A stretch of 39,311 nt of DNA, taken from the UHGV virus genome UHGV-0361196; one strand, 5' to 3'. This DNA is from a virus. The notes under the pieces were generated by a model. That model was not told the DNA's origin. It worked only from the letters and a program-made list of their open reading frames with translations, and searched no databases. Of the stretch, positions 1-39,190 are shown one piece after another. Position numbers and translations under genes: made by a program. How positions within the stretch are numbered: the stretch's first letter is position 1; the number at the start of each line of letters is the position of its first letter.

Positions 1-274
1 CGAAACGTCAAAACCGCGGCTCCCGAAACTCAACGGGTGATGTTCTTTAAAAATCAGGATTTATTTCAGGCTCCGGCAATACGCATTTATGTGTTCTGTC
101 AGTCATCCGGCTGGCAGGTAATGAAAACGCAGGAACAGAAGGAGGAAAACACCGGAAAGCGTCAGATGCAGATATGAAAAAAAGCAGGTCAGGGACCTGC
201 TTAATCCACGCCGTAAGAATTGTGCGACCAATTTTGACGGCATTGTTAACCAATTTGTCATAAGGAATCCATTT

Positions 275-505
275 ATGACTGTAAGCATTGTTTCACCTTC
301 CGCAGCGGCTGTAAAGCCCCGCCGTCATCCCCGTTTCAGACGCGAAGACATCCCCGCGCCGGAACTTGACCCCGTGCTGAAAGCCTTCGGGCGACACATT
401 GCCCGGAGTTTTCGCCGGGGGCGTGGTGTACACATCCCCGCCATGAAAAACACGGCCTTCGGGCAGGTGCTCCGCACACTCGAACTGAAACGCGCTTTTA
501 ACTGA
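275..505 (+). CDS. hypothetical small basic protein (76 aa), flanking replicon
   Basis: ORF with AGGA about 10 nt upstream of the ATG; Arg-rich; no recognisable motif; weak call. Confidence 0.3.
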   Translation: MTVSIVSPSAAAVKPRRHPRFRREDIPAPELDPVLKAFGRHIARSFRRGRGVHIPAMKNTAFGQVLRTLELKRAFN

Positions 506-2694: not shown

Positions 2695-2870
2695 GAGAGG
2701 TAAATCATTTGATACTGCTGAAAAATCCGGGAGGAAAGTGGATCAAACGGGATTTGATGGGATAAAACAAACAGTTATGACGTAAAACAGTGTTATGCGC
2801 ACAACATGTGATTTGATACTACTGTCGCAAAGAAAGCTAAAAACGAAAAAATATTTGATACTACTGATTT
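2695..2870. repeat. left end (attL-like) with three putative transposase-binding repeats
   Basis: TTTGATAC at 2708..2715, 2812..2819 and 2854..2861 in the same orientation; L1 is about 100 bp from the adjacent L2/L3 pair, as in Mu attL; the reverse complement GTATCAAA recurs three times at the right end. Confidence 0.6.
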
Positions 2871-2895
2871 CTGCGATTTTAACGTTTTAAACAGG

Positions 2896-2932
2896 TTAAA
2901 AAACCAGCCGCGGGCTATTGGAATTAGCCCGC
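2896..2932 (-). terminator. candidate intrinsic terminator of repressor gene
   Basis: 8-bp stem GCGGGCTA / TAGCCCGC (2910..2917 / 2925..2932) with 7-nt loop; plus-strand A-run 2898..2903 gives a U-run after the hairpin on the minus strand; stem overlaps the stop codon. Confidence 0.4.
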
Positions 2933-3508
2933 CTTCGATTCTAAACTACTTGAGAGTTTATCGCTTTCAATTTCTGCCAAAATCTCTCTAACTCTTTCAT
3001 CCGATAAATGATCTAAAAGTAGAGCTGCTGCACGTTTTCGTCCTTCAAGTTGGATTAGTTCTTGATTCTCTGGTTCAAGTAACCGTGACAAGTACTTAGC
3101 TCCATTTAGCGCGAGGATTTTTGATAATCGCTCTGCCTCTGATGCTTCTAAAGCACTTAGTATAGCAAGAAGGCGCTGTAGCGTTATATCTAGGGGCAAT
3201 TGGACGTTTTCATCTATTTTAGGTGATATTGGTTCTATATCCTCCTTGCCAAAAACAAGCCAATCAATGCTCACCCCTTCTGCAAAAGCAATCTGACTAG
3301 CTACTTGTAGAGATGGTGTCGCATCTTTCTCAAAGTAGTTGTTAAGTGTTGAGAACGGTAGCCCCCACGCCTTCGCCACGGCAGTCTTGGAGCGCCCGCG
3401 CATTAGCATGGCTAGGCGCTCTTTAATGCTTTCTTTTTGAAACACAGGAAAAGAAAAATCACTTTCTTTTTCAGTGCTTCTTTCTTTTCTGTTAACCATA
3501 TGATTCAT
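2924..3508 (-). CDS. prophage repressor with XRE/lambda-cI-like HTH (Mu c functional equivalent)
   Basis: Only minus-strand gene in the prophage, divergent from ner as in Mu; HTH-like segment SKTAVAKAWGLPFSTLNNY followed by GVSIDWLVFG; start ambiguous (ATG 3508 or 3499 preferred over the GTG at 3559 that gives the 211-aa track ORF). Confidence 0.7.
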   Translation of the reverse strand: MNHMVNRKERSTEKESDFSFPVFQKESIKERLAMLMRGRSKTAVAKAWGLPFSTLNNYFEKDATPSLQVASQIAFAEGVSIDWLVFGKEDIEPISPKIDENVQLPLDITLQRLLAILSALEASEAERLSKILALNGAKYLSRLLEPENQELIQLEGRKRAAALLLDHLSDERVREILAEIESDKLSSSLESKAG

Positions 3509-3648
3509 AAAGAAATATCCTTTTGTAGATAAAAACCACCAAAGAAAGAGATAAAACACCTTTACTTTTCTTTTGTAGTGATCAAATATTTATCTGTAGA
3601 GATTATCCGGCGGTGTTATCCGCGCAGATAACTTTTAAGGATAAACGA
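3509..3648. promoter_or_regulatory. divergent early/repressor promoter-operator region
   Basis: Intergenic between divergent repressor and ner; repeated CTTTTGTAG-like motifs (about 3514..3530 and 3569..3585; variant TATCTGTAGAG about 3591..3601) and near-palindrome GTTATC-CGCGCA-GATAAC at 3615..3632; lies about 0.8-0.95 kb from the left end, where Mu has its operators and transposition enhancer. Confidence 0.5.
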
Positions 3649-3885
3649 ATGATGTCTATAAATGAAGTTGTTAAACAGGACTGGCACCCCGCGCATGTTG
3701 TCGCGGCGGTGCATGTAAAAGGTTTTACTTTACGCTCTCTGTCCATTGAAGCCGGTTTAAACCAGGATTCTTTAAAGAATGCCCTGTACCGCAAATGCCC
3801 AAAATATGAGCGCATTATTGCTGATGCTATTGGTGTTGCGCCGGAGGAGATCTGGCCCAGCCGTTACGCTCGTAAGGTGGCATAA
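3649..3885 (+). CDS. ner: Ner-like DNA-binding early regulator (Ner/Nlp family)
   Basis: C-terminal region ...ADAIGVAPEEIWPSRY resembles the Ner/Nlp family signature; RBS AGGA 9 nt upstream of ATG 3649; the track ORF from 3613 is probably a 5' over-extension. Confidence 0.8.
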   Translation: MMSINEVVKQDWHPAHVVAAVHVKGFTLRSLSIEAGLNQDSLKNALYRKCPKYERIIADAIGVAPEEIWPSRYARKVA

Positions 3886-3887
3886 AA

Positions 3888-5975
3888 ATGTTTGTATCAG
3901 TTAATGAGCTTGTAGGGTTACCAGGTATGCCGGGAACTGCGCAAGGGGTGCGGTATTCCATAAGGAAACTGGCCTCATCTGAGCATTTCAGGCGCAAACG
4001 TGCGGGTTCAAAAACCATTGAATACAGCATCGACTGCCTCCCTCCGGTTACACAACGGGCGTTACGTGAGCGACATGTAGCTCAACTGATGGCAAGCGCC
4101 CCGCGGGAGATAACTACCCAGCCTCCTGTAAAGCGTGAACGCAAACAAAATGTTGTACAGCCTGTTGAGGCATATCGCGGTTCGCCACAATTGGTAGAAG
4201 AGCGTCTGAATGCGCTTACGGAAAATCAACGTAAAGTTGCAGAAGCGCGCATTGCTCTTGTCTGTGAAGTTCTACGAATTAGCCAGGAGCCGGGATTCAG
4301 TTGTGCCAGCGCTATACGTTTTATTGTGTCGCGGTTAGCGCAGGGTAACCTGGAAGAACGCCTGGAATCTTTGGTCATTACTGCTAATGCCCGTAAAGGA
4401 AAAGAGCGAACTCTGAGCGCAATTACGCTCAAACGTTGGATAGCTGCGTTTAACAAAGCACAGAATGCCGCAGAACGACTGCTGTTACTGGCACCAGGAA
4501 AGCGCGACGAAATAAAACCGGAAGAAATTAGCTGGCTGCCTGAATTTCTGGCGCAGTATCGTCAGGCTAACGGCAGGCCTATGTCTGAAGCCTATGAGGA
4601 TTTTGTCGCTGATTGGCAGCGTCGCCATGCGGACGAACCATACATGCTGGAGGTGATGCCTTCCTATGATGTTGTCCGGTATGCCATGAAAAAACTGCCG
4701 GAAGTGGTGAAACAAAAAGGGCGCGTTACCGGCAGTGAATACCGTCAGCTTGAAGGATTCACCCGCCGCGACTGGACAGCTATGCCGGTGAATTATGTCT
4801 GGATTGGTGACGGTCACGGTATGAAGCTGAAATGTGCACATCCGATCCACGGGCGTCCATTCTCACCGGAAGTTACATTTGTGATCGACGGTGGAACCCG
4901 GTTTGTTGTTGGCTGGAGTCTTGACCTTGCCGAGAACGTGTTCGCCGTTGCCGGTGCGATACAGCACGGCATTCGCAACCACGGAAAACCGTTTCTGTAT
5001 TACTCGGATAATGGTTCTGGTGAAACGGCTGACATACTGGACAAAGAGGTCGTGGGTATTCTGCCCCGCCTGGGGATTAAACACCCTACCGGTATTGCCG
5101 GTAATCCACAGGGGCGCGGCATTATTGAACGCCTGAACCGGACACTGCCGATGCGTATAGCCAGGAGGTATCGCACCTATTTTGGCAAGGGTGCTGACCG
5201 GGAATCGTTGCGTGTACTTAACCGTGATCTGCGTTCAGCGTTTAACGCCATGCAACAGGACAAGCCTCTGAACGACCGCCAGAAAGCTGCAATGCGCGAG
5301 CTACCATCGTGGGCGGAGCTTATTGAGGCTATTCGTGAAGGCGTGGAATGGTACAACAACCGCCCGCATTCTGAGCTGCCAATGAAACCGAACGGGCGGC
5401 ATTACAGCCCGGCAGAGTTCAGAAAAAAACGCCTGGCAGAAGAAGACACCGAAATTGAGTGGCTGAGTGATCTTGAGCTGCGCGACATGTTCCGCCCGAT
5501 GGTGGAACGCCCGGTAAGACGGTGCGAAATTCAGTGGCTGAACAATATTTACTACGCGCCGGAGTTGCGTGACGAACACGGTCGCAAAGTACTTATCAGT
5601 TATGACATTCATGACGCCGAGCGAATTACGGTACGTCGCAAGGACGGCAGCTTTATCTGTGAGGCGATATGGAACGGCAATAAACGCACAGCCTTTGCTG
5701 TCAGTGCTGAATATCACAAACAACAGCAGCGTATTAAAGGAATGCGCAAACGTGCTGAGGAAAAAATTCGTGATGCTGAGGATGAAGGCATTCAGATACT
5801 GGAGCACAAACAGGCTGAACCCTGGCTGGATAATGTTTATCGCCCGGTTGGCAATACGGTAACCATCCAGCAACAGGATTATGAGGAGGATTACGACGAA
5901 GATTATGAACGCGATTTCAGGCTGGGTTTGCAGAAGCTTGTAGCCATACAGGAACAGGATGATCCGCTGGCCTGA
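3888..5975 (+). CDS. DDE transposase, MuA family (divergent from Mu A)
   Basis: 695 aa; N-terminal enhancer-binding-like domain (VNELVGLPGMPGT...KTIEY) and candidate DDE residues in IGDGHG, YYSDNGSG and GIIERLNRTL, aligned by eye to Mu A catalytic core; acidic C-terminus; RBS AAGGTGG. Confidence 0.9.
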   Translation: MFVSVNELVGLPGMPGTAQGVRYSIRKLASSEHFRRKRAGSKTIEYSIDCLPPVTQRALRERHVAQLMASAPREITTQPPVKRERKQNVVQPVEAYRGSPQLVEERLNALTENQRKVAEARIALVCEVLRISQEPGFSCASAIRFIVSRLAQGNLEERLESLVITANARKGKERTLSAITLKRWIAAFNKAQNAAERLLLLAPGKRDEIKPEEISWLPEFLAQYRQANGRPMSEAYEDFVADWQRRHADEPYMLEVMPSYDVVRYAMKKLPEVVKQKGRVTGSEYRQLEGFTRRDWTAMPVNYVWIGDGHGMKLKCAHPIHGRPFSPEVTFVIDGGTRFVVGWSLDLAENVFAVAGAIQHGIRNHGKPFLYYSDNGSGETADILDKEVVGILPRLGIKHPTGIAGNPQGRGIIERLNRTLPMRIARRYRTYFGKGADRESLRVLNRDLRSAFNAMQQDKPLNDRQKAAMRELPSWAELIEAIREGVEWYNNRPHSELPMKPNGRHYSPAEFRKKRLAEEDTEIEWLSDLELRDMFRPMVERPVRRCEIQWLNNIYYAPELRDEHGRKVLISYDIHDAERITVRRKDGSFICEAIWNGNKRTAFAVSAEYHKQQQRIKGMRKRAEEKIRDAEDEGIQILEHKQAEPWLDNVYRPVGNTVTIQQQDYEEDYDEDYERDFRLGLQKLVAIQEQDDPLA

Positions 5976-5982
5976 ATAAAAA

Positions 5983-6006
5983 AACAGTCCGCGGGAACGG
6001 ACTGTT
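5983..6006 (-). terminator. hairpin between A and B, terminator-like on the minus strand
   Basis: 9-bp stem AACAGTCCG / CGGACTGTT with 6-nt loop; a run of 7 A precedes it on the plus strand (U-run after the hairpin on the minus strand); no T-run after it on the plus strand. Confidence 0.35.
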
Positions 6007-6048
6007 AAACGAAGGAAACAAAGCTGATTTGAATAAACGGAGAATAAT

Positions 6049-6981
6049 ATGACCGATATTAATGATGTTTTCAACACGATTAACACACTTATTACTGACG
6101 GCGTAAAAACACAAAGCGCTATTGCTAAAGAAGCGGGGGTGTCGGAGGCCACTCTTTCTGAACTTCGCAAAGGCCGTTACAAAGGTGATACCGAAGGGAT
6201 GCATGACAAATTACTGATGTGGCATCAGAGCTGGCAAAAAAGTCTGGAGTTACCTGGCGCACCACAACTTGTGGAAACACAAACCCTCCGTGATTTGCGC
6301 GAGCTGTTTCAGACCGTGCGTGTTATGGGCTGTATCAGCGTTCTGGTTGGTGTGCCGGGTGTTGGTAAAACCGTTGCGGCCCGTGAATACAGTAACCGTG
6401 TATCTAATACCTGGATGGTGACCCTTTCCCCTGCACACTCAACAGTGACTGAGTGTCTGCTGGAGCTGGCAGACGCGCTGGGAATTGATAATCCGCAAAG
6501 AAATAAAGGCGCATTGACCCGCGCCATTCGCAAAAAACTGAATGGCACACGCGGTCTGGTTATTGTGGATGAAGCTGACCACCTGAGCATGGACGGGCTG
6601 GAGCAGTTACGCGCCATTCAGGATGCAACCGGCGTCGGGATGGTATTGATTGGCAACCCACACCAGTTAGCCAAAGCCACACACCGGGGAACAGATGACC
6701 TTGCACGTTTGTTCAGTCGTTTCGCCAGAACAAAGCAACTACGTAAAGCCAAAAAGGCTGACGTGGTGGCAATTGCGAAAGCCTGGGGCATTGAGGGCGA
6801 AGATGAATTATCACTCATGCAGAGCATCGCGGAAAAACCAGGTGCATTACGTGTATTAACTCATACGCTGAATCAGGCGTGGCTGGCTGCCAGCGGGAAA
6901 GGCGTTCCTCTATCCAAAGGCTACATTAAAGCAGCTTTTAAAGAGGTTTACAGCAACCCGAAATTACTGAACTGGTGGTAA
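6049..6981 (+). CDS. MuB-like AAA+ ATPase transposition target-capture protein
   Basis: 310 aa; Walker A GVPGVGKT and Walker B VIVDEADH; N-terminal HTH-like region; directly after transposase gene as in Mu; RBS GGAGA. Confidence 0.9.
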   Translation: MTDINDVFNTINTLITDGVKTQSAIAKEAGVSEATLSELRKGRYKGDTEGMHDKLLMWHQSWQKSLELPGAPQLVETQTLRDLRELFQTVRVMGCISVLVGVPGVGKTVAAREYSNRVSNTWMVTLSPAHSTVTECLLELADALGIDNPQRNKGALTRAIRKKLNGTRGLVIVDEADHLSMDGLEQLRAIQDATGVGMVLIGNPHQLAKATHRGTDDLARLFSRFARTKQLRKAKKADVVAIAKAWGIEGEDELSLMQSIAEKPGALRVLTHTLNQAWLAASGKGVPLSKGYIKAAFKEVYSNPKLLNWW

Positions 6982-6992
6982 GGGGATAAATA

Positions 6993-9115: not shown

Positions 9116-9664
9116 ATGAAAGCATGTGCTTATTTTAAACTGAGTGACGAAGCCGCTAACGGTTATACGATTCGCTGGCTAAAAGAGGTTTCTGTTAAGC
9201 GTGGTGAGATTATTGAGTCATTACAGCAATCAGTGAAAGCAATCGGTGTGTCTTTGTCTGGTGACAAAGGGCCTGAGAGGGTTACGCATGTCTGGTTTAG
9301 CTACTTACCACCGGAAGGATGGGGGATTAAATCAAGGACACTTTTCATTGGTGATATTCAGTTATGGGGCGCAATGCCGGATATGACAATACCGGCAGGT
9401 CGTGAGTACGGGAAGCTCATCCGGGACTGTGAAAATCAGCTCGAAAAACACCCGGATTTTCAGCGCTGGCTGTGCAATGAACTTAACGTGGCTACCGACG
9501 TTGACCTGTTTGACATCAGGTCCGTGTGGAAAATGCACCACAGCCGTGACGGATTCAGCATTTTGTTTGCAGTGTACCTTCTGGCTGGCGAAGTGAAGGG
9601 ACCGGTTCCCGCCGAATGCCAGCGCATTAAACATTCTGAATTTGTGGCGCTGACGGAGGAATAA
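9116..9664 (+). CDS. hypothetical early protein (about 182 aa)
   Basis: RBS GGAGAG 9 nt upstream of ATG 9116 (track start 9110 is 2 codons upstream); no motif recognised. Confidence 0.55.
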   Translation: MKACAYFKLSDEAANGYTIRWLKEVSVKRGEIIESLQQSVKAIGVSLSGDKGPERVTHVWFSYLPPEGWGIKSRTLFIGDIQLWGAMPDMTIPAGREYGKLIRDCENQLEKHPDFQRWLCNELNVATDVDLFDIRSVWKMHHSRDGFSILFAVYLLAGEVKGPVPAECQRIKHSEFVALTEE

Positions 9665-10207: not shown

Positions 10208-10892
10208 AGACTGGGGTATTGATAAAAGTTGTGGCCGGGACGTCCTGGTGTACAAAAACTGTAGCGTGATTGAAGGAGAAGATGCCTGGCAGGTTCTGGA
10301 TATACTTCGTTCTGCTTTATGCAGAGCTGGCTATGTTACGCCAGCGTCAGTTAATGGCGGAACTGCCACTACCTGTATCAGAAATCAACTTTATAGTTTT
10401 TATACAGCCTACAACCGATGGTTAAAGAATGGGGCAATGGAGACGGGCGATGATGTATTTACCCGGGCTGCCGGATTATGTGCCAATGCTTACGATTATT
10501 TTGAATCAATCGGAGCAGACAGCGAGGCTGCGCTAGAACAATTACATGCGGATTTTGTCGCGAGTGGGCTGGATGAATCCCTGCCATTTAATGTAGATAA
10601 CGTGCACTACCATGATGAATGCCTACATGACAGATGCCACCTGAATTCAGCACGTGTGGCATGGGTTGAAAAACACTGTATTAGTTCTGATTCAGAAATA
10701 ACGGGGAAAAAGACAGTCGGTGAAAATTCGTATTCGTGGCTGGGGAAATTTACCACGGTGAAACAGGAATGCCCGACCTGCGGTAATGAAAACCCTGAAT
10801 ATCTGAAAGAGTGCCCTCATTGTGGCGGGCAGAAATGCAACCACTGCGATATGGGCGATGACACAGCGTGCATGAATTGTGAAGGTGAGTGA
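10197..10892 (+). CDS. Cys-rich protein with C-terminal tandem zinc-ribbon motifs (about 231 aa)
   Basis: Four CxxC motifs in the last 40 aa (CPTCG, CPHCG, CNHCD, CMNCE) plus a His/Cys cluster HYHDECLHDRCH; GTG 10197 preceded by GGAGG at 7 nt is preferred over the overlapping ATG at 10134. Confidence 0.5.
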   Translation: MKFEDWGIDKSCGRDVLVYKNCSVIEGEDAWQVLDILRSALCRAGYVTPASVNGGTATTCIRNQLYSFYTAYNRWLKNGAMETGDDVFTRAAGLCANAYDYFESIGADSEAALEQLHADFVASGLDESLPFNVDNVHYHDECLHDRCHLNSARVAWVEKHCISSDSEITGKKTVGENSYSWLGKFTTVKQECPTCGNENPEYLKECPHCGGQKCNHCDMGDDTACMNCEGE

Positions 10893-11202: not shown

Positions 11203-11501
11203 ACAATGAAGATAAATTTACTCCCCTTAATATTGATAACGTCATGGCTGAAAAAAGGATGCTGGAACGTGTTCGCGCTATCGTTGAATATGGTATTAAG
11301 CATGAACTCACCGCCAGAGAAGTCCGTGACATTATCAACCGCGAAATGAATCGTCTGGAAACAGTAGTGGCACTGCAAAATGAAACAGCCCGCGAGGAGT
11401 ACATCCGCCGCAGGCTGGGGTTATCAGACCAGGATATTGTTACTGACGCTCATGTGTTTGAGGCTTTTGAGATCCGTCAGCATCTGGGCCTTACGAACTG
11501 A
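11199..11501 (+). CDS. hypothetical early protein (100 aa)
   Basis: ATGA start/stop overlap with upstream gene; charged helical product. Confidence 0.5.
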   Translation: MNNEDKFTPLNIDNVMAEKRMLERVRAIVEYGIKHELTAREVRDIINREMNRLETVVALQNETAREEYIRRRLGLSDQDIVTDAHVFEAFEIRQHLGLTN

Positions 11502-11552
11502 TGTGTAAATTCAGGCGGTGTTGCAGCACCGCCTCTTTCCGGAGGTACGATC

Positions 11553-12104
11553 ATGAGCCGCACATCCCTGATTAAATTAATCCATGTCGCCCGTCGGGAG
11601 CTACAACTCGACGACGACACTTACCGCGCCTTTCTGATGCAGAAAACGGGCAAAACCAGTTGCCGCGAGCTGACGGTAACGCAACTGGAACAGGTGCTCG
11701 ATGCCATGAAAGAACGCGGCTTTAAGAAGCTGATTAAACATCCACGTCGCCGCTTTAAGGGGTATGTCACGCCCCGCGAGAAGGTGTATAAAATCTGGCA
11801 GCAGATGGCAGAAGACGGTTTTATTACCGATGGCGGTGATGTGGCGCTGGACAGATATGTTCAACGCCTGACCACGAAACGTAATGGCGGACAGGGTGTT
11901 TCCACGCTGGCGTGGTGTCATGGCGACACCCTGTTGATTGTTCTCGAAACTCTCAAGCAGTGGCATATCCGCTGTATTCGTGAAGCCTTTTCCCGTCACG
12001 GGCTTCCGTTGCCGGTCAGTCCGTCCGGGCGTGAACTGCGCGGCTATGATGCCATGACGGCGGCTTATGCCCATGCCAGAAAGACACGGAGGATGGCACA
12101 ATGA
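11553..12104 (+). CDS. gemA: GemA-like early protein (Mu gp16 family)
   Basis: 183 aa beginning MSRTSLIKLIHVARRELQLDDDTYRAF, which I recognise as the Mu GemA family; sits immediately upstream of mor as in Mu; RBS GGAGG. Confidence 0.75.
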   Translation: MSRTSLIKLIHVARRELQLDDDTYRAFLMQKTGKTSCRELTVTQLEQVLDAMKERGFKKLIKHPRRRFKGYVTPREKVYKIWQQMAEDGFITDGGDVALDRYVQRLTTKRNGGQGVSTLAWCHGDTLLIVLETLKQWHIRCIREAFSRHGLPLPVSPSGRELRGYDAMTAAYAHARKTRRMAQ

Positions 12105-12490
12105 CGGAAGATTTATTTGGTGATTTGCAGGATGACACCATCCTGGCACATCTTGACAATCCCGCAGAGGATGCGTCACGCTTTCCGGCACTGCTGGCGG
12201 AGCTGAACGATTTACTGCGCGGGGAGTTGTCCCGGCTGGGTGTTGATCCTGCCCATTCACTGGAGATTGTTGTGGCTATCTGTAAGCATCTGGGTGGCGG
12301 TCAGGTCTACATTCCACGCGGTCAGGTTCTGGACTCGCTGATTCGGGATTTGCGTATCTGGAATGATTTTAACGGTCGCAACGTCAGCGAACTGACCACC
12401 CGTTATGGTGTCACTTTCAATACGGTTTACAAGGCCATTCGCCGGATGCGACGGCTGAAATACCGCCAGTACCAGCCCTCACTTCTGTAA
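12101..12490 (+). CDS. mor: Mor, middle-operon transcription activator
   Basis: 129 aa, Mor/C family with C-terminal HTH (...NGRNVSELTTRYGVTFNTVYKAIRR); near-identical to Mu Mor as recalled; paralogous to C at 13283..13705. Confidence 0.9.
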   Translation: MTEDLFGDLQDDTILAHLDNPAEDASRFPALLAELNDLLRGELSRLGVDPAHSLEIVVAICKHLGGGQVYIPRGQVLDSLIRDLRIWNDFNGRNVSELTTRYGVTFNTVYKAIRRMRRLKYRQYQPSLL

Positions 12491-12495
12491 ACAGT

Positions 12496-12520
12496 AAAGC
12501 CGGTTAATCCGGCTTTTTTT
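12496..12520 (+). terminator. intrinsic terminator after mor
   Basis: 8-bp stem AAAGCCGG / CCGGCTTT with loop TTAAT, followed by a run of 7 T. Confidence 0.7.
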
Positions 12521-12567
12521 ACGTCCTCAATATCCTGTGATGAATAACCGTACCGGGGGAAATCATC

Positions 12568-12786
12568 ATGGGTAAAGGCTGGAATGCATCCTTTCATCTT
12601 GGCAGACGTGAGCGGCTGCGTCAGGAGGTTTTGCACCGTGTCGCCGGTGGGCCACGGCCTGCGCCCCGCGACTATACCGGTCATGATGGCACCCACGGCA
12701 GTTATTACATGAAAGGCTGGCAGTCAGTTGATATGCCGGAAATTCTTCATCATTGCCTGCTTTACAGGGAGAAACATTATGTCTGA
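12568..12786 (+). CDS. hypothetical protein (72 aa)
   Basis: ORF with GGGGGA upstream; His/Arg-rich; weak call. Confidence 0.4.
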   Translation: MGKGWNASFHLGRRERLRQEVLHRVAGGPRPAPRDYTGHDGTHGSYYMKGWQSVDMPEILHHCLLYREKHYV

Positions 12787-13141
12787 GCGTTCTGCTCGTC
12801 AGTGGCCTGATTTTTTATCGGTGGTATTACTGGCGCTGTTATTGTGGATAAGTCTGTTTTGTGGCTGGCGCGCGCTGATGTTTTGCTGTGCCTCGGTTTT
12901 CAGTGTTGCTTTATGTGTTGCCGCTGATTGTCTGGATGCGCTGATAATGAGCTGCCGGGTGCCTGAACATTTTGCCCGGTTCGTCTGGCCTCTGACCTGG
13001 CTGGGGAGTCTGTCCGGGCTGGGATTAGCCGTGATGGCAACGTCTCAACTGAAAACGGGTCCTGAGCATGTCATCTGGGCGCTGGCCGGATTGCTGACGT
13101 TCTGGCTCTCCTTTCGTTTTCGCGCTCGTCTGTTCGGGTAA
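12779..13141 (+). CDS. multi-pass membrane protein, holin candidate (about 120 aa)
   Basis: ATG 12779 preceded by GGGAGA; three to four hydrophobic segments; lies between mor and C, where Mu carries a small membrane protein. Confidence 0.5.
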   Translation: MSERSARQWPDFLSVVLLALLLWISLFCGWRALMFCCASVFSVALCVAADCLDALIMSCRVPEHFARFVWPLTWLGSLSGLGLAVMATSQLKTGPEHVIWALAGLLTFWLSFRFRARLFG

Positions 13142-13150
13142 AGGGGCACC

Positions 13151-13270
13151 ATGTACAGAAAATTCAGTGATGAATGTTTCGGGCCGTCCACGCTGATGAG
13201 TGCGATAAAAGTGATTGCCCTTGTGGTTCTGATAACCATCAGTGCCGTGGTGTATCTTTCTGTCTGTTAA
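13151..13270 (+). CDS. small single-pass membrane peptide (39 aa), not in ORF track
   Basis: ATG 13151 preceded by AAGGGG at 7 nt; translation MYRKFSDECFGPSTLMSAIKVIALVVLITISAVVYLSVC has one TM helix; fills the gap between flanking genes. Confidence 0.4.
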   Translation: MYRKFSDECFGPSTLMSAIKVIALVVLITISAVVYLSVC

Positions 13271-13282
13271 CCGGGGGAAAAT

Positions 13283-13705
13283 ATGCAGCATGATTTATTT
13301 GAACACGATCCGGCAATTCGCCAGTTAATCGGACATATTGATAACATCCCGGCCCCGGAACTGGAATCACGCTGGCCCCGTTCGGTGGTTGATCTGATTG
13401 ATGTTCTGGAAAACGAACTGAAACGCCAGAACGTCAGCAATCCCCGTGAGCTTGCCCGTAAACAGGCCGTTGCCCTGTCCTGTTTTCTGGGCGGACGGCA
13501 GTTTTACATCCCCTGCGGCGATACGATCCTGACCGCGTTACGTGACGATTTGCTTTACTGCCAGTTTAATGGTCGTAACATGGAAGAACTGCGTCGCCAG
13601 TACCGCCTGTCCCAGCCGCAGATCTACCAGATTATTGCCCGCCAGAGAAAGCTGCATACACGACGTCATCAGCCTGATCTGTTCTCACCTGAAAGCCCAA
13701 AATAA
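13283..13705 (+). CDS. C: C, late-gene transcription activator (Mor/C family)
   Basis: 140 aa, paralogous to Mor (...NGRNMEELRRQYRLSQPQIYQIIARQRK); near-identical to Mu C as recalled; RBS GGGGGA. Confidence 0.9.
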   Translation: MQHDLFEHDPAIRQLIGHIDNIPAPELESRWPRSVVDLIDVLENELKRQNVSNPRELARKQAVALSCFLGGRQFYIPCGDTILTALRDDLLYCQFNGRNMEELRRQYRLSQPQIYQIIARQRKLHTRRHQPDLFSPESPK

Positions 13706-13727
13706 CCGGCATCCTGCCGGTTATTTC
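13702..13727 (+). terminator. candidate terminator/attenuator after C
   Basis: Perfect 10-bp stem ATAACCGGCA / TGCCGGTTAT with 3-nt loop, followed by TTATTTCC. Confidence 0.45.
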
Positions 13728-13796
13728 CTGTCACCATAATCCCGCACCTGCCATCTGATTTTTTAGACTGCCATCAGCGCATTTTTTCAGGGAAGC

Positions 13797-14315
13797 ATGA
13801 TGGCGGGGATACCAAAAAAACTGAAAGCCGCACTGCTGGCGGCAACGATTGCCGGTGGCGGTGTGGGTGGTTATCAGGAAATGACCCGTCAGTCTCTGAT
13901 CCATCTGGAAAATATCGCTTATATGCCTTACCGCGATATTGCCGGTGTGCTTACGGTCTGTGTGGGACATACCGGGCCGGATATCGAAATGCGCCGTTAC
14001 AGCCATGCGGAGTGTATGGCTCTTCTCGACAGTGATTTAAAACCGGTTTATGCGGCAATCGATCGTCTTGTCAGGGTGCCGCTGACGCCATATCAGAAAA
14101 CGGCGCTGGCAACGTTTATTTTCAACACCGGTGTTACCGCATTCAGTAAATCAACGCTGCTGAAAAAACTCAATGCCGGTGATTACGCCGGAGCGCGTGA
14201 CCAGATGGCCCGCTGGGTGTTTGCCGCAGGCCATAAATGGAAAGGACTGATGAACCGTCGCGAAGTGGAAATGGCAATCTGGAATATCAGGGGGGCGGAT
14301 GACCTTCGCCAGTAA
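13797..14315 (+). CDS. lys: SAR endolysin (T4-lysozyme-like muramidase with N-terminal signal-anchor-release segment)
   Basis: N-terminal Gly/Ala-rich weakly hydrophobic segment LKAALLAATIAGGGVGG; catalytic pattern E-x8-D-x5-T in ENIAYMPYRDIAGVLT; matches Mu endolysin as recalled. Confidence 0.9.
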   Translation: MMAGIPKKLKAALLAATIAGGGVGGYQEMTRQSLIHLENIAYMPYRDIAGVLTVCVGHTGPDIEMRRYSHAECMALLDSDLKPVYAAIDRLVRVPLTPYQKTALATFIFNTGVTAFSKSTLLKKLNAGDYAGARDQMARWVFAAGHKWKGLMNRREVEMAIWNIRGADDLRQ

Positions 14316-14685
14316 AAGTTTACTTCTGGCAGCCGTGTTTGCCGCCGTTCTGTCCGGGGTGTTGTGGCACAGGCTGGACAGCACCCGCCACGATAACCAG
14401 ACGCTGCGCCGTAAATTACAGACGGAGCAACAGGCCCGCCACACTGCTGAATGGTTGTTACACAGTCAGGAACAGACGATGCAGGTATTTTCCGCTATCC
14501 GTGCCGCAAATCGTGCCGCGCGGCTGGAAGATGAGACAGAACATCATGATGCCAAACAAAAAATTACAACCGCTATTACCGGTGACAATTGCAGCACTCG
14601 TCCTGTGCCTGCCGTTGCTGCTGACAGGTTGCGGGAACTCGAAAAACGCACCCGTGCCATCGGTGGTGATCCTTCCCGAAACTGA
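14299..14685 (+). CDS. i-spanin (Rz-like)
   Basis: N-terminal TM helix SLLLAAVFAAVLSGVLW followed by charged helical periplasmic domain; overlaps the endolysin 3' end. Confidence 0.65.
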   Translation: MTFASKSLLLAAVFAAVLSGVLWHRLDSTRHDNQTLRRKLQTEQQARHTAEWLLHSQEQTMQVFSAIRAANRAARLEDETEHHDAKQKITTAITGDNCSTRPVPAVAADRLRELEKRTRAIGGDPSRN

Positions 14686-14887
14686 TGCAGAACTGACGGA
14701 AGCAACGCCCGTTCCGCCCATGCCACAGCCCCTGACGTGGGGAGCATCCCTTCTCTGGAATGCTGACCTGCTGATGGCGCTCGGGCAGTGCAACCGCGAC
14801 AAGGCATCAGTCCGGGAACAGGAGACCCGGAGGAAAGAAATTTATGAACGAAGACCAGAACCGGGCGGTGGCGCTGCTGCTCGCTGA
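14546..14887 (+). CDS. o-spanin (Rz1-like outer-membrane lipoprotein), overlapping the i-spanin in another frame
   Basis: Lipoprotein signal MMPNKKLQPLLPVTIAALVLCLPLLLTGC with lipobox LLTGC; Pro-rich mature part; begins inside the i-spanin gene and extends beyond it. Confidence 0.6.
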   Translation: MMPNKKLQPLLPVTIAALVLCLPLLLTGCGNSKNAPVPSVVILPETDAELTEATPVPPMPQPLTWGASLLWNADLLMALGQCNRDKASVREQETRRKEIYERRPEPGGGAAAR

Positions 14888-15038
14888 ACTCTGGCAGGGG
14901 AATACCCGTGATATTCCCCGTCCGGCGGCGTATGACCCGCCTGTATTGTGTGCCGGTTGCGGTCGTGAGCTGCGGCCTGATGTGCTGAGACAGCAGCCAA
15001 TGGCGAACTACTGCCACTGGTGCCGTGGAGCAGAATAA
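14844..15038 (+). CDS. small Cys-rich protein (64 aa)
   Basis: Strong RBS GGAGGAAAG; Cys pairs CAGCG and CHWC. Confidence 0.5.
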   Translation: MNEDQNRAVALLLAELWQGNTRDIPRPAAYDPPVLCAGCGRELRPDVLRQQPMANYCHWCRGAE

Positions 15039-15337
15039 TGGATTTGATTTCAGTTTTAGCGTTATGGCCTTACCTGTTGCCTGTTGTGGCCGGTGGGGCC
15101 GTCTGGGCGATGCGTCGTAGTTTTGCCAGCACCGAGCGTGTGGAGCGTCTTGAAAACCGGATGACCGAAATGGAAACCCGCTACGCCAGCATCCCTGGCA
15201 CAGAAGATGTACACGAAATGCGCCTGCGTATTGCAGAGCTGTCCGGCGATATCCGGGTGCTGTCCCAGCGGGTGCAGTCATTTTCCCATCAACTGGAGCT
15301 GCTGCTTGAAAACGCAGTAAACCGGAGTAATTCATGA
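15038..15337 (+). CDS. membrane-anchored coiled-coil protein, candidate lysis accessory (Mu gp25 releasin-like position)
   Basis: ATG 15038 after GGAGCAG; N-terminal TM helix LISVLALWPYLLPVVAGGAVWA then helical charged region; last gene of the lysis cluster. Confidence 0.5.
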   Translation: MDLISVLALWPYLLPVVAGGAVWAMRRSFASTERVERLENRMTEMETRYASIPGTEDVHEMRLRIAELSGDIRVLSQRVQSFSHQLELLLENAVNRSNS

Positions 15338-15624
15338 TTAACGATATTCTGACCGAAGACCGTCGTCTGGTCATCCTGCGTTCCCTGATGGACTGCAATA
15401 ACGAAGCCAACGAATCCATCCTTCAGGACTGTCTGGATGCATACGGACACAACGTTTCCCGCGATGTGGTTCGCGGCCAGATTGACTGGCTGGCAGAGCA
15501 GCAACTGGTCACCGTGGAAAACCTGCGCGGCTTTTATGTCGTAACGCTGACCTCCCGAGGTCAGGATGTGGCGGAAGGCCGCGCCCGCGTTGCCGGTGTC
15601 AAGCGTCCGCGTCCCCGTGCATGA
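15334..15624 (+). CDS. conserved Mu-like phage protein (96 aa), upstream of terminase genes
   Basis: ATGA overlap with upstream gene. Confidence 0.6.
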   Translation: MINDILTEDRRLVILRSLMDCNNEANESILQDCLDAYGHNVSRDVVRGQIDWLAEQQLVTVENLRGFYVVTLTSRGQDVAEGRARVAGVKRPRPRA

Positions 15625-15635
15625 CAGGAGGCGTG

Positions 15636-16211
15636 ATGGACAGGAAAACACGGGGCCGGGCTTCAAAAGTGGATTTACTGCCGGAAAACGTACGTAAAAC
15701 GCTGCATGAAATGCTGCGTGATAAGGCGATCCCACAGGCCCGCATTCTGGAAGAAATTAACGCACTGATTGAAGACGCTGGCCTGCCGGATGAGATGAAA
15801 CTCTCCCGTTCCGGTCTGAACCGTTACGCGACGAACGTCGAGCAGGTAGGCCATAACCTGCGACAGATGCGTGAAATGACGTCAGCACTGACCGCAGAAC
15901 TTGGCGACAAGCCAATGGGAGAAACCACAAAGCTGATTCTGGAAATGGCCCGCAGCCAGCTTTTTAAGGCCATGATGCGGCAAATCGAAAACCCGGAATC
16001 TGACGTGGATATTGACCTGCTGAAAAATGCCATGCTGGCGGCACAGCGTCTGGAATCCACGGCAATGTCCAGCCACCGGCGCGAGAAAGAAATCCGCCAG
16101 GCATTCGCAGAAGAAGCGGCAAACGCCGTCAGTGAAGAACTGCGCGGGCAGGATGGCATCAGCGAAGAGCTGGAGCAGCGTATCCGTGATGTGCTGCTGG
16201 GTAAGGCATGA
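15636..16211 (+). CDS. terminase small-subunit-like protein (Mu gp27 family)
   Basis: ATG 15636 preceded by AGGAGG; charged helical product directly upstream of the large terminase. Confidence 0.7.
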   Translation: MDRKTRGRASKVDLLPENVRKTLHEMLRDKAIPQARILEEINALIEDAGLPDEMKLSRSGLNRYATNVEQVGHNLRQMREMTSALTAELGDKPMGETTKLILEMARSQLFKAMMRQIENPESDVDIDLLKNAMLAAQRLESTAMSSHRREKEIRQAFAEEAANAVSEELRGQDGISEELEQRIRDVLLGKA

Positions 16212-16218
16212 GAGGGTT

Positions 16219-17874
16219 ATGAACACCAGAGAAAACAACCTTAAAGCCCTTCATGCCCCCCGAAAAATCAACCTGCGTGAGGAAGCCGAACTGCTCGGCG
16301 TGAATATCGTGACCGATATCGGGGAAGCACAGCCCCGCAATGAACCGGTTTTTCTGGGCTATCAGCGCTGCTGGTTTGAGGATGAAAGCCAGATTTGCAT
16401 CGCTGAAAAATCCCGTCGTACCGGTCTGACATGGGCCGAAGCGGGCCGCAATGTCATGACGGCAGCAAAGCCGCGCCGCCGTGGCGGTCGCAACGTCTTT
16501 TATGTGGGTTCCCGTCAGGAAATGGCGCTGGAATATATCGCCGCCTGTGCCCTGTTTGCCCGCGCCTTTAACCAACTGGCAAAGGCTGATGTCTGGGAGC
16601 AGACCTTCTGGGACAGCGACAAAAAAGAAGAAATCCTCACTTATATGATCCGTTTCCCTAACAGCGGATTTAAGGTGCAGGCGCTGTCAAGCCGTCCGTC
16701 TAACCTGCGTGGTTTGCAGGGGGACGTGGTGATTGATGAGGCGGCATTTCATGAAGCCCTGGACGAACTCCTGAAAGCGGCCTTTGCTCTCACCATGTGG
16801 GGTGCCCGCGTGCGGATCATATCGACACATAACGGCGTCGATAACCTGTTTAACCAGTACATTCAGGATGCGCGCGAGGGGCGCAAGGATTACAGCGTTC
16901 ACCGCATCACGCTGGATGATGCCATCGCTGACGGGTTGTACCGACGTATCTGTTACGTCACGAATCAGCCGTGGTCGCCGGAAGCGGAAAAAGCCTGGCG
17001 TGATGGCCTGTACCGGAATGCGCCGAATAAAGAGAGTGCCGACGAGGAATACGGCTGCATTCCTAAAAAATCCGGGGGCGCTTATCTGTCACGCGTGCTG
17101 ATTGAAGCCGCCATGACGCCAGTGCGGGATATCCCGATTCTGCGTTTTGAAGCCCCGGACGATTTTGAATCGCTGACACCACAAATGCGCCACGGCATCG
17201 TTCAGGACTGGTGTGAACAGGAGCTGCTCCCGTTGCTCGATGCGCTGTCGCCGCTCAATAAACACGTACTGGGCGAAGACTTTGCACGCCGTGGCGACCT
17301 GACGGTGTTTGTGCCGCTTGCCATCACTCCTGACTTACGCAAACGCGAATGTTTCCGCGTGGAGCTGCGTAATGTGACCTATGACCAGCAGCGACAAATC
17401 CTTTTATTCATTCTGTCCCGTTTGCCCCGTTTTACCGGCGCTGCATTTGATGCCACCGGTAACGGCGGTTATCTGGCAGAAGCCGCCCGTCTGATTTATG
17501 GCCCGGAGATGATCGACTGTGTGAATCTGACCGCATCCTGGTATCAGGAGTGGATGCCCAAACTGAAAGGCGAGTTTGAAGCGCAGAACATCACGATTGC
17601 CCGGCACCAGACCACACTTGATGACCTGCTCCACATCAAGGTGGACAAAGGTATTCCGCAGATTGATAAGGGGCGCACAAAAGACGAAGGCGGTAAAGGC
17701 CGACGACATGGCGACTTTGCCGTGGCGCTCTGTATGGCTGTCAGGGCGTCTTATATGAATGGTTTTGTTATCGACGAGGACAGCATACAGGCGCTGCCAC
17801 CACGCCACCGTGGTGATGGTGTTGATAACGATGATTTTGATGATTATCACCAGTTTGAACGAGGGGGCTGGTAA
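16219..17874 (+). CDS. terminase large subunit
   Basis: About 551 aa from ATG 16219 (GAGGG upstream); ATPase and nuclease-like acidic motifs (VVIDEAAFHE, DFAVALCMA); the track ORF from 16027 is a 5' over-extension overlapping the upstream gene. Confidence 0.9.
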   Translation: MNTRENNLKALHAPRKINLREEAELLGVNIVTDIGEAQPRNEPVFLGYQRCWFEDESQICIAEKSRRTGLTWAEAGRNVMTAAKPRRRGGRNVFYVGSRQEMALEYIAACALFARAFNQLAKADVWEQTFWDSDKKEEILTYMIRFPNSGFKVQALSSRPSNLRGLQGDVVIDEAAFHEALDELLKAAFALTMWGARVRIISTHNGVDNLFNQYIQDAREGRKDYSVHRITLDDAIADGLYRRICYVTNQPWSPEAEKAWRDGLYRNAPNKESADEEYGCIPKKSGGAYLSRVLIEAAMTPVRDIPILRFEAPDDFESLTPQMRHGIVQDWCEQELLPLLDALSPLNKHVLGEDFARRGDLTVFVPLAITPDLRKRECFRVELRNVTYDQQRQILLFILSRLPRFTGAAFDATGNGGYLAEAARLIYGPEMIDCVNLTASWYQEWMPKLKGEFEAQNITIARHQTTLDDLLHIKVDKGIPQIDKGRTKDEGGKGRRHGDFAVALCMAVRASYMNGFVIDEDSIQALPPRHRGDGVDNDDFDDYHQFERGGW

Positions 17875-25012: not shown

Positions 25013-26496
25013 GCGATATTTCATTTAACGCGATCCCGTCAGATGTTCGCGTTCCTCTGACGTATATCGAATTTGATAACAGTAATGCCGTCAGCGGAAC
25101 ACCGGCACCCCGTCAGCGCGTGCTGATGTTCGGGCAAAGCGGAAGTAAAGCCAGTGCGGCACCAAACGTGCCTGTCCGTATCCGTTCCGGCTCACAGGCC
25201 AGTGCGGCATTTGGTCAGGGTTCCATGCTGGCACTGATGGCAGATGCATTCCTGAACGCTAACCGCGTGGCGGAGCTGTGGTGTATTCCGCAGGGAAACG
25301 GCACCGGTAATGCTGCTGTCGGTGAAATCTCACTGTCCGGAACGGCAGGCGAAAACGGCTCGCTTGTGACTTACATAGCCGGTCAGCGACTGGCGGTATC
25401 TGTCGCAGCAGGTGCAACGGGAGCGGCGCTGGCTGACCTGCTGGTTGCCCGAATCAAAGGCCAGCCTGATTTACCGGTGACGGCAGAAGTTCGCGCAGAC
25501 AGCGGGGATGATGACACCCATGCAGATGTGGTTCTGAGTGCAAAATTTACGGGTGCATTATCTGCCGTGGATGTGCGCTGGAACTATTACGCGGGTGAAA
25601 CCACCCCTTACGGGATTATCACGGCATTCAAAGCCGCCTCCGGGAAAAATGGCAACCCGGATATCAGCGCAAGTATCGCGGGAATGGGCGATCTGCAATA
25701 CAAATATATTGTGATGCCCTATACCGATGAACCGAACCTGAATCTGTTACGCACTGAATTGCAGGAACGCTGGGGACCGGTCAATCAGGCTGATGGCTTT
25801 GCCGTGACAGTGCTGTCCGGCACGTATGGGGATATTTCCACGTTTGGTGTCAGTCGTAATGACCATCTGATCTCCTGTATGGGGATTGCCGGTGCACCGG
25901 AACCGTCATACCTGTACGCCGCCACACTGTGTGCCGTTGCCAGCCAGGCGCTTTCCATCGACCCGGCGCGTCCTCTCCAGACGCTGACGTTGCCCGGAAG
26001 AATGCCGCCTGCGGTGGGGGATCGTTTCACCTGGTCAGAACGTAATGCGCTGCTGTTTGACGGCATCTCCACGTTTAACGTGAATGATGGTGGTGAAATG
26101 CAGATTGAACGCATGATCACGATGTACCGCACAAACAAGTACGGTGACAGCGATCCGTCTTATCTGAACGTGAATACCATCGCCACGCTGAGTTATCTGC
26201 GTTATTCGCTGCGAACCCGCATCACGCAGAAATTCCCGAACTACAAGCTGGCAAGTGATGGCACCCGCTTTGCCACCGGTCAGGCCGTGGTGACGCCATC
26301 CGTGATCAAGACGGAACTGCTGGCACTGTTTGAAGAATGGGAAAACGCCGGACTGGTCGAGGATTTCGACACGTTCAAAGAGGAGCTGTATGTGGCACGT
26401 AACAAGGACGACAAAGACCGTCTTGATGTGCTGTGCGGCCCGAATCTGATTAACCAGTTCCGCATTTTCGCGGCACAAGTTCAGTTCATTCTGTAA
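25009..26496 (+). CDS. L: contractile tail sheath protein
   Basis: 495 aa; immediately upstream of the tube gene. Confidence 0.9.
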
Positions 26497-37528: not shown

Positions 37529-37531
37529 ATT

Positions 37532-38059
37532 ATGCAGCATTTAAAAAACATTAAGTCAGGTAATCCAAAAACAAAAGAACAATATCAGCTAACAAAGAAT
37601 TTTGATGTTATCTGGTTATGGTCCGAAGACGGAAAAAACTGGTATGAGGAAGTAAGTAATTTTCAGCCAGACACAATAAAGATTGTTTACGATGAAAATA
37701 ATATTATTGTCGCCATCACCAGAGATGCTTCAACGCTCAACCCTGAAGGTTTTAGCGTTGTCGAGGTTCCTGATATTACCGCCAACCGACGTGCAGACGA
37801 CTCAGGTAAATGGATGTTTAAGGATGGTGCCGTGATTAAGCGGATTTATACGGCGGACGAACAGCAGCAACTGACAGAATTACAGAAGGCAACTTTGCTT
37901 TCCGAAGCTGAATCCGTGATTTTGCCGCTGGAACGCGCTGTCAGGCTGAATATGGCAACAGATGAGGAGCACAGCCGACTGGAGGCATGGGAACGCTACA
38001 GCGCTCTGGTCAGCCGCGTGGATACGGCAAAGCCAGAATGGCCACAAAAACCAGAGTAA
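37532..38059 (+). CDS. U: tail fibre assembly chaperone (Mu U / lambda Tfa-like)
   Basis: 175 aa directly after the fibre gene; C-terminal segment [32 protein letters not shown] typical of Tfa proteins. Confidence 0.8.
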
Positions 38060-38064
38060 AAATT

Positions 38065-38092
38065 AAGGCCCGATAGCGGGCCTTCTCTTATT
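38065..38092. terminator. hairpin terminator between convergent tail-fibre-assembly sequences
   Basis: 8-bp stem AAGGCCCG / CGGGCCTT with loop ATAG, followed by CTCTTATTC. Confidence 0.55.
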
Positions 38093-38291
38093 CTGGTTGT
38101 TCGGAAAACGTTACTGGCAGGCTGGAGGGGTCTGTATATTCGACCTTCTGCGCATAGAGCATCCACTCGGTTAATTTTTGTTTATTCTCGTCGGAAATGA
38201 TACCCAGCCGTAGCGAACGCATATAGAAAACGACGATCGAATCAATTGAATCGATCGGTAATACAGATCGATTATGCCCCAATAACCACAC
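38088..38291 (-). pseudogene. relic of an inverted second tail-fibre-assembly gene (G-segment remnant)
   Basis: Minus-strand 67-aa ORF whose last 30 aa (SDENKQKLTEWMLYAQKVEYTDPSSLPVTFSEQPE) mirror the Tfa C-terminus pattern D-E-x4-L-x2-W-x2-Y-x3-V-x3-D; convergent with the intact chaperone gene; no variable fibre part or invertase follows. Confidence 0.35.
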
Positions 38292-38532: not shown

Positions 38533-39190
38533 GTATGAAGGCCAGATTGTTGGCTATGGTTCAAAGGAGCTGCGCGTTGAAACCATATCCTGCTGGCTGG
38601 CCCGCACAATTATTCAGACAAAGCACTATTCCCGCCGTTTTGTGAATAACTCTTACCTCCACCTGGGAGTATTCAGCGGACGCGATCTGGTTGGCGTTCT
38701 CCAGTGGGGATATGCCCTTAACCCCAACTCAGGTCGTCGTGTCGTGCTTGAAACGGATAACCGGGGCTATATGGAGTTGAATCGCATGTGGCTACACGAC
38801 GACATGCCCCGCAACTCTGAATCACGGGCCATCAGCTACGCGCTGAAAGTTATCAGATTACTGTATCCGTCAGTGGAGTGGGTTCAGTCATTTGCTGACG
38901 AACGCTGCGGATGCGCAGGCGTTGTGTATCAGGCGTCGAATTTTGATTTTATTGGCAGCCATGAAAGCACGTTCTACGAGCTGGATGGTGAGTGGTATCA
39001 CGAGATAACGATGAACGCAATTAAGCGCGGTGGACAACGAGGCGTGTATTTACGGGCTAATAAAGAGCGTGCCGTGGTGCACAAATTTAATCAGTATCGC
39101 TACATCAGGTTCCTGAACAAGCGAGCAAGGAAGCGGCTAAATACTAAGCTATTCAGGGTTCAGCCATACCCTAAAAGCACTCCCGATTAG
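38453..39190 (+). CDS. mom: Mom, DNA modification protein (adenine modification, anti-restriction)
   Basis: ORF overlapping the 3' end of com in another frame, as in Mu; matches Mu Mom as recalled; the true start is probably downstream of 38453, near the com stop. Confidence 0.85.

Follow-up and report, generated by a model that had tools for sequence, protein, structure and literature searches.

How does a Mu-like prophage open its host cell, and does it need a holin to do so? This question is raised by a lysis region in the UHGV virus genome UHGV-0361196, a stretch of 39,311 nucleotides (hereafter the window). Here, the genes of an endolysin and its partners lie downstream of the late activator gene C, and two small membrane-protein genes, 19 and 20, lie upstream of it. 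A preliminary description of this DNA, made from the sequence letters, saw in this arrangement a lysis module split around C, with holin-like proteins on its far side. We find instead that the locus is the lysis region of a Muvirus prophage, effectively Mu/D108 at this place, and we are highly confident that it works as published for Mu, by means of an endolysin of the signal-anchor-release (SAR) type together with a releasin. The parts of this cassette are already known: experimental work of 2022 assigned them, and the phage Mu record AF083977 carries them as annotations.

Performing megablast with window positions 12500-15700 against the phage collection, we found full coverage (100%) at 98.6-98.7% identity for Mu (AF083977, NC_000929), D108 and Mu_3F6, and 80-88% coverage for SfMu and several Yersinia and Escherichia Muvirus isolates. 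The interval shows 98.6% nucleotide identity and zero indels against Mu AF083977 9180-12380, and 98.7% identity against D108 (GQ357916). We carried the Mu features of the curated AF083977 record to the window by a constant offset of +3320, listed the open reading frames (ORFs) of positions 11500-17000, and took the identity of each protein to its Mu counterpart from the in-register translation. The ORFs named in the preliminary description were all recovered where it had placed them, on the + strand and colinear with Mu without an indel, and each one is an annotated Mu gene (19, 20, C, 22, 23, 23.1, 24 and 25). The homologous interval of AF083977 reads Pm, 18, 19, 20, C, terminator, Plys, 22, 23, 23.1, 24, 25, 26, 27; that record annotates gene 19 as a protein of four transmembrane domains (TMDs), 20 as a 1-TMD protein, 24 as hypothetical, 26 as a winged helix-turn-helix protein and 27 as the small terminase. 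The gp18, gp19, gp25 and gp26 proteins are 100% identical to those of Mu. Families were assigned with Pfam and PHROGs profiles, and a hydropathy and motif script using the Kyte-Doolittle (KD) scale was used for TMDs, lipoboxes and the catalytic triad. PHROGs places 22, 23 and 23.1 in endolysin or Rz-like spanin families, and 18, 19, 20, 24, 25 and 26 in families of unknown function. Judged as profile matches, the family-level assignments of the lysis-region proteins are far beyond chance. Shine-Dalgarno sequences stand at the gene starts and neighbouring genes overlap at several junctions, that of 25 and 26 being ATGA. The late block downstream of C consists of five genes:

13800..14315, + strand: gene 22 (lys), SAR endolysin, a glycoside hydrolase family 24 (GH24)-type muramidase of 171 aa, PF00959
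14299..14685, + strand: gene 23, inner-membrane spanin subunit (i-spanin) that has its TMD at the N terminus and a helical domain in the periplasm
14546..14887, + strand: gene 23.1, outer-membrane lipoprotein spanin subunit (o-spanin), lipobox LTGC (26-29), Cys29, PF23793
14844..15038, + strand: gene 24, soluble late protein of 64 aa in which an N-terminal helix precedes a C4 zinc knuckle
15038..15337, + strand: gene 25, releasin (DUF2730) of 99 aa, a type I membrane protein (N-out/C-in) with an acidic helical-hairpin cytoplasmic domain

The gp22 protein, whose listed ORF begins one Met earlier at 13797, is identical to Mu gp22 at 170 of 171 residues and 100% identical to D108 Lys. It belongs to Phage_lysozyme (PF00959, E 1e-37) and carries the triad E37-x8-D46-x5-T52. 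Residues 6-26, KKLKAALLAATIAGGGVGGYQ, contain 5 Gly, 5 Ala and 3 Lys (K6, K7 and K9), and the mean KD of residues 8-26 is 0.93, as against 1.6-2.8 for the true TMDs of the neighbouring proteins. A muramidase domain with its triad thus follows a weakly hydrophobic, Gly/Ala-rich N-terminal segment that is preceded by basic residues, which is the constitution expected of a SAR endolysin. In Mu, gp22 is a SAR endolysin that is released by the phage 21 pinholin S21-68 and also by chloroform, and K6A or K7A, not K9A, removes its dependence on gp25 (PMC9239132). Across five Muvirus endolysins K6 and K7 do not vary, nor do E37 and D46, and the two lysines are also retained in the endolysin of a more distant Mu-like prophage (L008), which begins MPGIPKKLKAS. 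As a separate observation, the endolysin of Yersinia phage vB_YpM_5 (L003 2153-2668), a close gp22 homologue, has Ser in place of the triad Thr52 and Gly in place of Ala48.

Genes 23 and 23.1 encode the spanin pair. Preceded by GGGGGG, gene 23 starts inside the end of gene 22, with which it shares 17 nt; its product (121 of 128 residues identical to Mu gp23) has a TMD at 4-22 (KD 1.93) and matches the Rz-like spanin family PHROG 214 (E 3e-34), as an i-spanin should. Gene 23.1 begins in the +1 frame 247 nt into gene 23; the two genes share 140 nt, after which gene 23.1 continues for another 202 nt. Its product (106 of 113 residues identical) falls into the LysC/Rz1-like family PF23793 (E 8e-15). 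The signal peptidase II lipobox, a Pro-rich mature part (10 Pro in 84 aa) and the out-of-frame start inside gene 23 are together the marks of an overlapped o-spanin. When Mg2+ stabilises the outer membrane, cells that have lost their spanins become spherical. In Mu, 23 and 23.1 are the spanin subunits, and the 23.1am mutant gave spherical cells and was tested for rescue with lambda RzRz1 (PMC9239132).

Gene 25 starts, following the Mu annotation, at the ATG at 15038, which is preceded by GGAG; an in-frame GTG at 15020 lies upstream and is not the annotated start. Its product is 100% identical to the prototype Mu gp25 and matches PF10805 (DUF2730, E 2.5e-13). The TMD at 4-22 is followed by M25 R26 R27, so that the basic RR/RK pair of a releasin stands at the junction of membrane and cytoplasm. 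The cytoplasmic domain contains 12 acidic residues, 9 Ser and 2 His, matching the description in PMC9239132. An AlphaFold2 (AF2) model, with a predicted local distance difference test (pLDDT) score of 79, shows a TM helix running through residue 49 (10-49) and a second helix at 56-97, forming a membrane-anchored helical hairpin. Gp25 defines DUF2730, which in Mu-like phages is encoded within five genes downstream of the endolysin (PMC9239132); here, gene 25 is the fourth after 22, and the prophage, with GemA, Mor and the Mu head genes, has the outfit of a transposable phage. Mu 25::cam lysogens fail to lyse on time, although chloroform lyses them; gp22 and gp25 supplied from plasmids are sufficient for lysis, and gp25 also aids the release of foreign SAR endolysins (PMC9239132).

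The downstream half of the preliminary description therefore stands. It had recognised a SAR endolysin from the Gly/Ala-rich segment and the E-x8-D-x5-T triad, overlapped i- and o-spanin genes in different frames with a lipobox, a Cys-rich 64-aa ORF after them (gp24, with four Cys), and a TM-anchored coiled-coil protein as the candidate counterpart of the Mu releasin; the last is Mu gp25 to the residue, and the modelled hairpin makes "coiled-coil" a fair term.

Bringing these parts together, the locus would work as follows. Mor would activate Pm, giving genes 18, 19, 20 and C, and C would then activate Plys, giving 22-23/23.1-24-25 and reading on into gene 26 and the terminase genes. Gp22 would be exported by Sec, and its SAR domain, weakly hydrophobic and rich in Gly and Ala, would keep it inactive in the inner membrane, with K6 and K7 on the cytoplasmic side locking it there. 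Gp25, anchored by its N-terminal TMD and exposing an acidic helical domain to the cytoplasm, would be needed for gp22 release. The released gp22 would refold to an active muramidase and degrade the peptidoglycan, and the complex of gp23 in the inner membrane and the lipoprotein gp23.1 in the outer membrane would then disrupt the outer membrane. Identity, domains, motifs, gene order and promoter conservation are what the present DNA contributes, and every functional step comes from the Mu literature; we infer that this particular prophage would behave as Mu does. Nothing in the sequence contradicts this Mu-type explanation.

Where the membrane proteins upstream of C belong is decided by the regulatory layout. 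The features of this part are as follows:

12483..12553, + strand: middle promoter Pm, Mor-activated, transferred from Mu 9163-9233; it overlaps the terminator hairpin 3' of mor and drives 18-19-20-C
12568..12786, + strand: gene 18, soluble middle-operon protein of 72 aa, identical to Mu gp18
12779..13141, + strand: gene 19, middle gene for a 4-TMD inner-membrane protein of 120 aa, 100% identical to Mu gp19
13151..13270, + strand: gene 20, middle gene for a single-TMD peptide of 39 aa
13283..13705, + strand: gene C, late transcription activator of the Mor family, which switches on Plys and other late promoters
13703..13789, + strand: terminator downstream of C and then the C-dependent late promoter Plys, transferred from Mu 10383-10406 and 10403-10469

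The Pm region differs from Mu by 1 nt in 111 nt, with a terminator-like hairpin at 12496-12516, and the 121-nt alignment covering the end of C, the terminator and Plys has 4 differences from Mu. The C protein is identical to Mu C at 139 of 140 residues (T138S) and matches the Pfam Mor family PF08765 (E 9e-34). A sigma-70 promoter scan of the region gave nothing relevant, which is expected because Pm and Plys are activator-dependent. Since both promoter regions are nearly identical to those of Mu, we place 18-19-20-C in a Mor-dependent middle operon and 22-25 in a C-dependent late transcript, as in Mu. For gp18, Pfam gave no match and the PHROG family is one of unknown function.

Could gp19 and gp20 nevertheless be a holin/antiholin pair, with the lysis module split around C? 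This was the proposal of the preliminary description for 12779..13141 and the 39-aa peptide, and Samanta et al. 2021 had suggested it earlier from topology alone. A holin and its antiholin should be small integral membrane proteins, be made from the late lysis transcript together with the endolysin, be needed for timed lysis and kill when depolarisation of the membrane triggers them, and be conserved along with the lysis cassette. In size and topology the pair is indeed holin-like: gp19 shows four hydrophobic peaks (about 12-30, 32-50, 71-89 and 97-113) and gp20 one strongly hydrophobic C-terminal segment (KD 2.77). Both genes lie near the endolysin gene, and gp19, gp20, gp23 and gp25 are the sole TMD proteins of the Mu genome (PMC9239132). 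A topology check, as the preliminary description had advised, thus does find the TM segments, but their presence is not the relevant test, and the proteins are still not lysis proteins. Genes 19 and 20 stand upstream of C and Plys, in the Pm operon, and not on the late transcript. In Mu they are middle-operon genes and dispensable (PMC9239132); inactivating them left lysis unchanged (Mathee & Howe 1993, cited in PMC9239132). Alone or together they were not lethal, and the energy poison dinitrophenol (DNP) triggered neither them nor gp25, nor did any lethality follow DNP when they were combined with gene 25, whereas lambda S105 and S21-68 were lethal. Mu lysis itself comes later, not earlier, when DNP is added, and the authors concluded that "Mu is a holin-less phage" (PMC9239132).

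The distribution of these genes among relatives also speaks against the pair. The match between SfMu and the window is perfect as far as 12749 and resumes at 13152; in SfMu, about 30 nt (550-581) stand in place of the 402 nt between, which include the whole of gene 19, and gp18 and gp20 are retained there. Five more phage records resemble SfMu in their megablast coverage pattern (87-88% in two pieces), which makes it probable that several other isolated Muvirus phages lack gene 19 too. The vB_YpM_5 and vB_YpM_6 matches begin at 13148, with different ORFs standing at the place of genes 18 and 19. Homologues of gp19 were found in close Mu relatives only, hence the search gave no functional clue. 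In L008, genes 18, 19 and 20 are all absent, and the order is GemA, an unrelated 127-aa putative lipoprotein, C, SAR endolysin, i-spanin, o-spanin (lipobox LTSC), gp24 homologue, DUF2730, gp26 homologue and gp27. Because 22-23-23.1-24-25 are kept while 18-20 vary, 22-25 are an evolutionarily stable unit, and the membrane genes upstream of C are variable accessories. This comparative pattern agrees with the published experiments and contradicts a lysis module straddling C. NCBIfam had nothing informative for gp19, gp20, gp24 and gp25, and the PADLOC defence models gave no match for gp18, 19, 20, 24 and 26 and a sub-threshold coiled-coil match for gp25 only. A holin/antiholin role of gp19 and gp20 is, in our judgement, exceedingly unlikely. 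They are non-essential middle-operon membrane proteins unrelated to lysis timing, and there is no holin. The practical consequence is a useful correction: gp19 and gp20 are not to be annotated as holin and antiholin, as Mu-type phages lyse without a holin, by a SAR endolysin and a releasin.

The 127-aa protein that lies between GemA and C in L008 (1958-2341) has a signal peptide and a lipobox-like LATC, and its position looks like a slot for moron-type cargo.

Some observations weigh against a simple transfer of the Mu scheme to this prophage. The one endolysin difference from Mu, V15A, lies inside the SAR domain, where it is the D108 allele. The spanin pair is the most diverged part of the cassette, with seven substitutions in gp23 and seven in gp23.1, and gp20 is identical to Mu gp20 at 37 of 39 residues (I16M, N17S). 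For the releasin itself, the literature offers a protease, charge neutralisation or a transient channel as candidate modes of action. A further concern is that the prophage might be a decayed remnant in which the cassette is non-functional. Its location in a plasmid, its ends and early region that differ from Mu, and a tape-measure gene with an additional 184 nt or so would fit such decay. However, the lysis-region ORFs are full length with starts, stops, ribosome-binding sites (RBSs) and promoters intact, the element measures about 36.6 kb from end to end, and its early region, queried over 2696-5000, is 99% identical to that of an isolated Yersinia phage. We therefore hold decay to be very unlikely and retain the explanation by the intact Mu-type cassette.

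The plasmid setting can be described as follows. Positions 1 to about 2690 are the leading region of a conjugative plasmid, with an antirestriction, DUF3560, methyltransferase and ssb neighbourhood. A complete Mu-like prophage follows at about 2691-39271, and then come 40 nt of the same plasmid (39272-39311). Since plasmid sequence stands on both flanks, the Mu-like prophage is inserted in a plasmid; NZ_CP024888 shows the insertion site uninterrupted. On both sides of the element stands a 4-nt TACT repeat; a clean 5-bp target duplication and TG...CA termini were not evident at its ends. These ends (from about 2691, and 39175-39271) carry TTTGATAC and GTATCAAA repeats, which are not the Mu attL/attR sequences. 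From GemA to the tail-fibre gene the element is 97-98% identical to Mu, while the early region with repressor and transposase (about 2696-6988) gave no blastn match to Mu; it was the part of this region at 2696-5000 that matched vB_YpM_5. The non-Mu ends and early region joined to a Mu late region make this a mosaic element with a different transposition and immunity module. The additional tape-measure sequence (about 29047-29250) matches Mu 25560-25727 a second time and appears to be an internal tandem duplication; if so, the tape measure would be longer, and possibly the tail as well. The invertible G-segment with the tail-fibre C-terminal region (35442-38214) is 70-87% identical to Mu or unmatched, as against about 98% for the gin, com and mom genes beside it, which suggests a different host-range cassette.

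What, then, does gene 24 do in the late block? The gp24 protein is identical to Mu gp24 at 63 of 64 residues (D20N), is predicted to be soluble (maximum KD 0.14) and has a strong RBS (GGAGG). Its gene overlaps 23.1 by 44 nt and is joined to gene 25 by a TAATG stop-start overlap, and its cysteines are arranged as C36xxC39-x17-C57xxC60. Homologue searches among 1.84 billion representatives gave only three true relatives; long multi-stretch matches were disregarded, being Cys-repeat proteins. Gp24 and these three relatives all share the four Cys, E3/D4 and a PMA motif, and the Cys and several other residues are kept down to 41-43% identity. In both relatives with genomic context (61% and 43% identity) the gene lies directly upstream of DUF2730; the 61% relative is that of L008, where 22-23-23.1-24-25-26-27 are conserved.

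These features would suit a fifth working component of the lysis cassette, such as a cytoplasmic protein that binds zinc and serves the releasin as partner or regulator, and not a passenger: the gene sits between the o-spanin and releasin genes, overlaps both, and keeps its place and its cysteines in diverged relatives. Against this, gp22 and gp25 from plasmids lyse cells without gp24, which PMC9239132 nowhere mentions; nonsense-mutant screens of Mu over decades gave one lysis gene only, the endolysin gene 22 (PMC9239132); and synteny says little about function where late genes are packed so tightly. We therefore consider a fifth lysis protein unlikely. If gp24 were such a partner, it could modulate the releasin and so set lysis timing in a holin-less phage.

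The other direction in which gp24 points is transcription. Its single-sequence AF2 model (pLDDT 79) has a helix at 3-23 followed by the zinc knuckle, and the top two Foldseek matches in the PDB are F-plasmid TraR on RNA polymerase (6n57_M) and DksA (2kq9), at E 0.37-0.5. A 4-sequence profile run against PDB sequences again had DksA 2kq9 as its best match (E 0.028), with one other match that was far weaker, and hhalign against a TraR-family alignment gave 59.7% probability, with columns 33-62 on 34-63. The CxxC-x17-CxxC spacing after an N-terminal helix is the same as that of the zinc finger of F TraR. The N-terminal DxxDxA motif, which is essential for function, and the C-terminal helix are among the defining features of the TraR family, and D6N cripples lambda Orf73 (PMC9239242). 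In the place of D3, D6 and A8, gp24 has E3..N6..A8 and its relatives E3..T6..A8 and D3..Q6..A8, so that the second Asp is found in none. The C-terminal helix, which in TraR contacts the beta lobe of RNA polymerase, is lacking as well, gp24 ending 4 residues past its last Cys where TraR has 12 more, and the Pfam family zf-dskA_traR (PF01258) did not match even at E 10. In view of these absences, we do not assign gp24 to the TraR/DksA family, whose zinc finger it weakly resembles in predicted fold and Cys spacing.

A second feature that might touch on late expression is a perfect 19-nt inverted repeat between genes 19 and C. One arm, 13088-13106, falls within gene 19, in the codons of its last TMD, and the other, 13425-13443, in gene C at about codons 48-54, so that the repeat encloses gene 20 and the C start codon. 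The pairing extends imperfectly to about 35 nt, and by our own estimate its chance expectation in 3.4 kb is about 2e-5. Both arms are found in Mu and D108, and the C arm alone in phages without gene 19. In the minimum-free-energy fold of 13070-13460 the repeat is the closing stem (z = -3.8). We found no discussion of it in the literature. The repeat may form a long-range structure in the RNA of the middle transcript, or it may be left over from the acquisition of gene 19; if the former, the stem could tune C translation and so the onset of late (lysis) gene expression. A gp24 that is translationally coupled to the releasin gene could, as a truncated and diverged TraR/DksA relative acting late, work on the host RNA polymerase. 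Taken jointly, these two proposals are quite improbable.

Two further observations concern neither proposal. A 291-aa antisense ORF at 14544-15419(-) crosses genes 23.1-25; it had no match in NCBIfam, the sole library searched with it, and probably arose by chance in GC-rich coding DNA. Within the lysis region Rfam gave no RNA family; its sole match in the window is AS-pc01, the antisense RNA of plasmid pHK01, at 179-280(-), with 79.4 bits, just over the gathering threshold.

Compared with known systems, the locus is closest to the Mu cassette 22-25 (Chamblee et al. 2022, mBio 13:e00813-22; AF083977), with which it shares order, frames, overlaps and promoters. It differs by seven amino acid substitutions per spanin subunit, one in gp24, two in gp20 and one in the endolysin, and in that the element lies in the leading region of a conjugative plasmid with ends and an early (repressor/transposase) region unlike Mu. 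With D108 it shares 98.7% of its nucleotides here and the whole endolysin, although the early region of the prophage has no near-identity match to D108. SfMu and the related Yersinia and Escherichia Muvirus isolates have the same 22-25 late block at about 98% identity; unlike SfMu, which lacks gene 19, the window keeps it, as do Mu and D108. Phage 21 (S21-68/R21) and P1 (Lyz) likewise use a Sec-exported, SAR-tethered endolysin that is activated by release from the membrane. In those phages, a holin or pinholin depolarises the membrane to free the enzyme, whereas here there is no holin and release would proceed via the non-lethal releasin gp25. Finally, lambda Rz/Rz1 likewise pairs an inner-membrane type II protein with an outer-membrane lipoprotein in the +1 frame, but Rz1 is fully embedded in Rz, while the o-spanin gene here is an overlapped one that continues 202 nt beyond gene 23.

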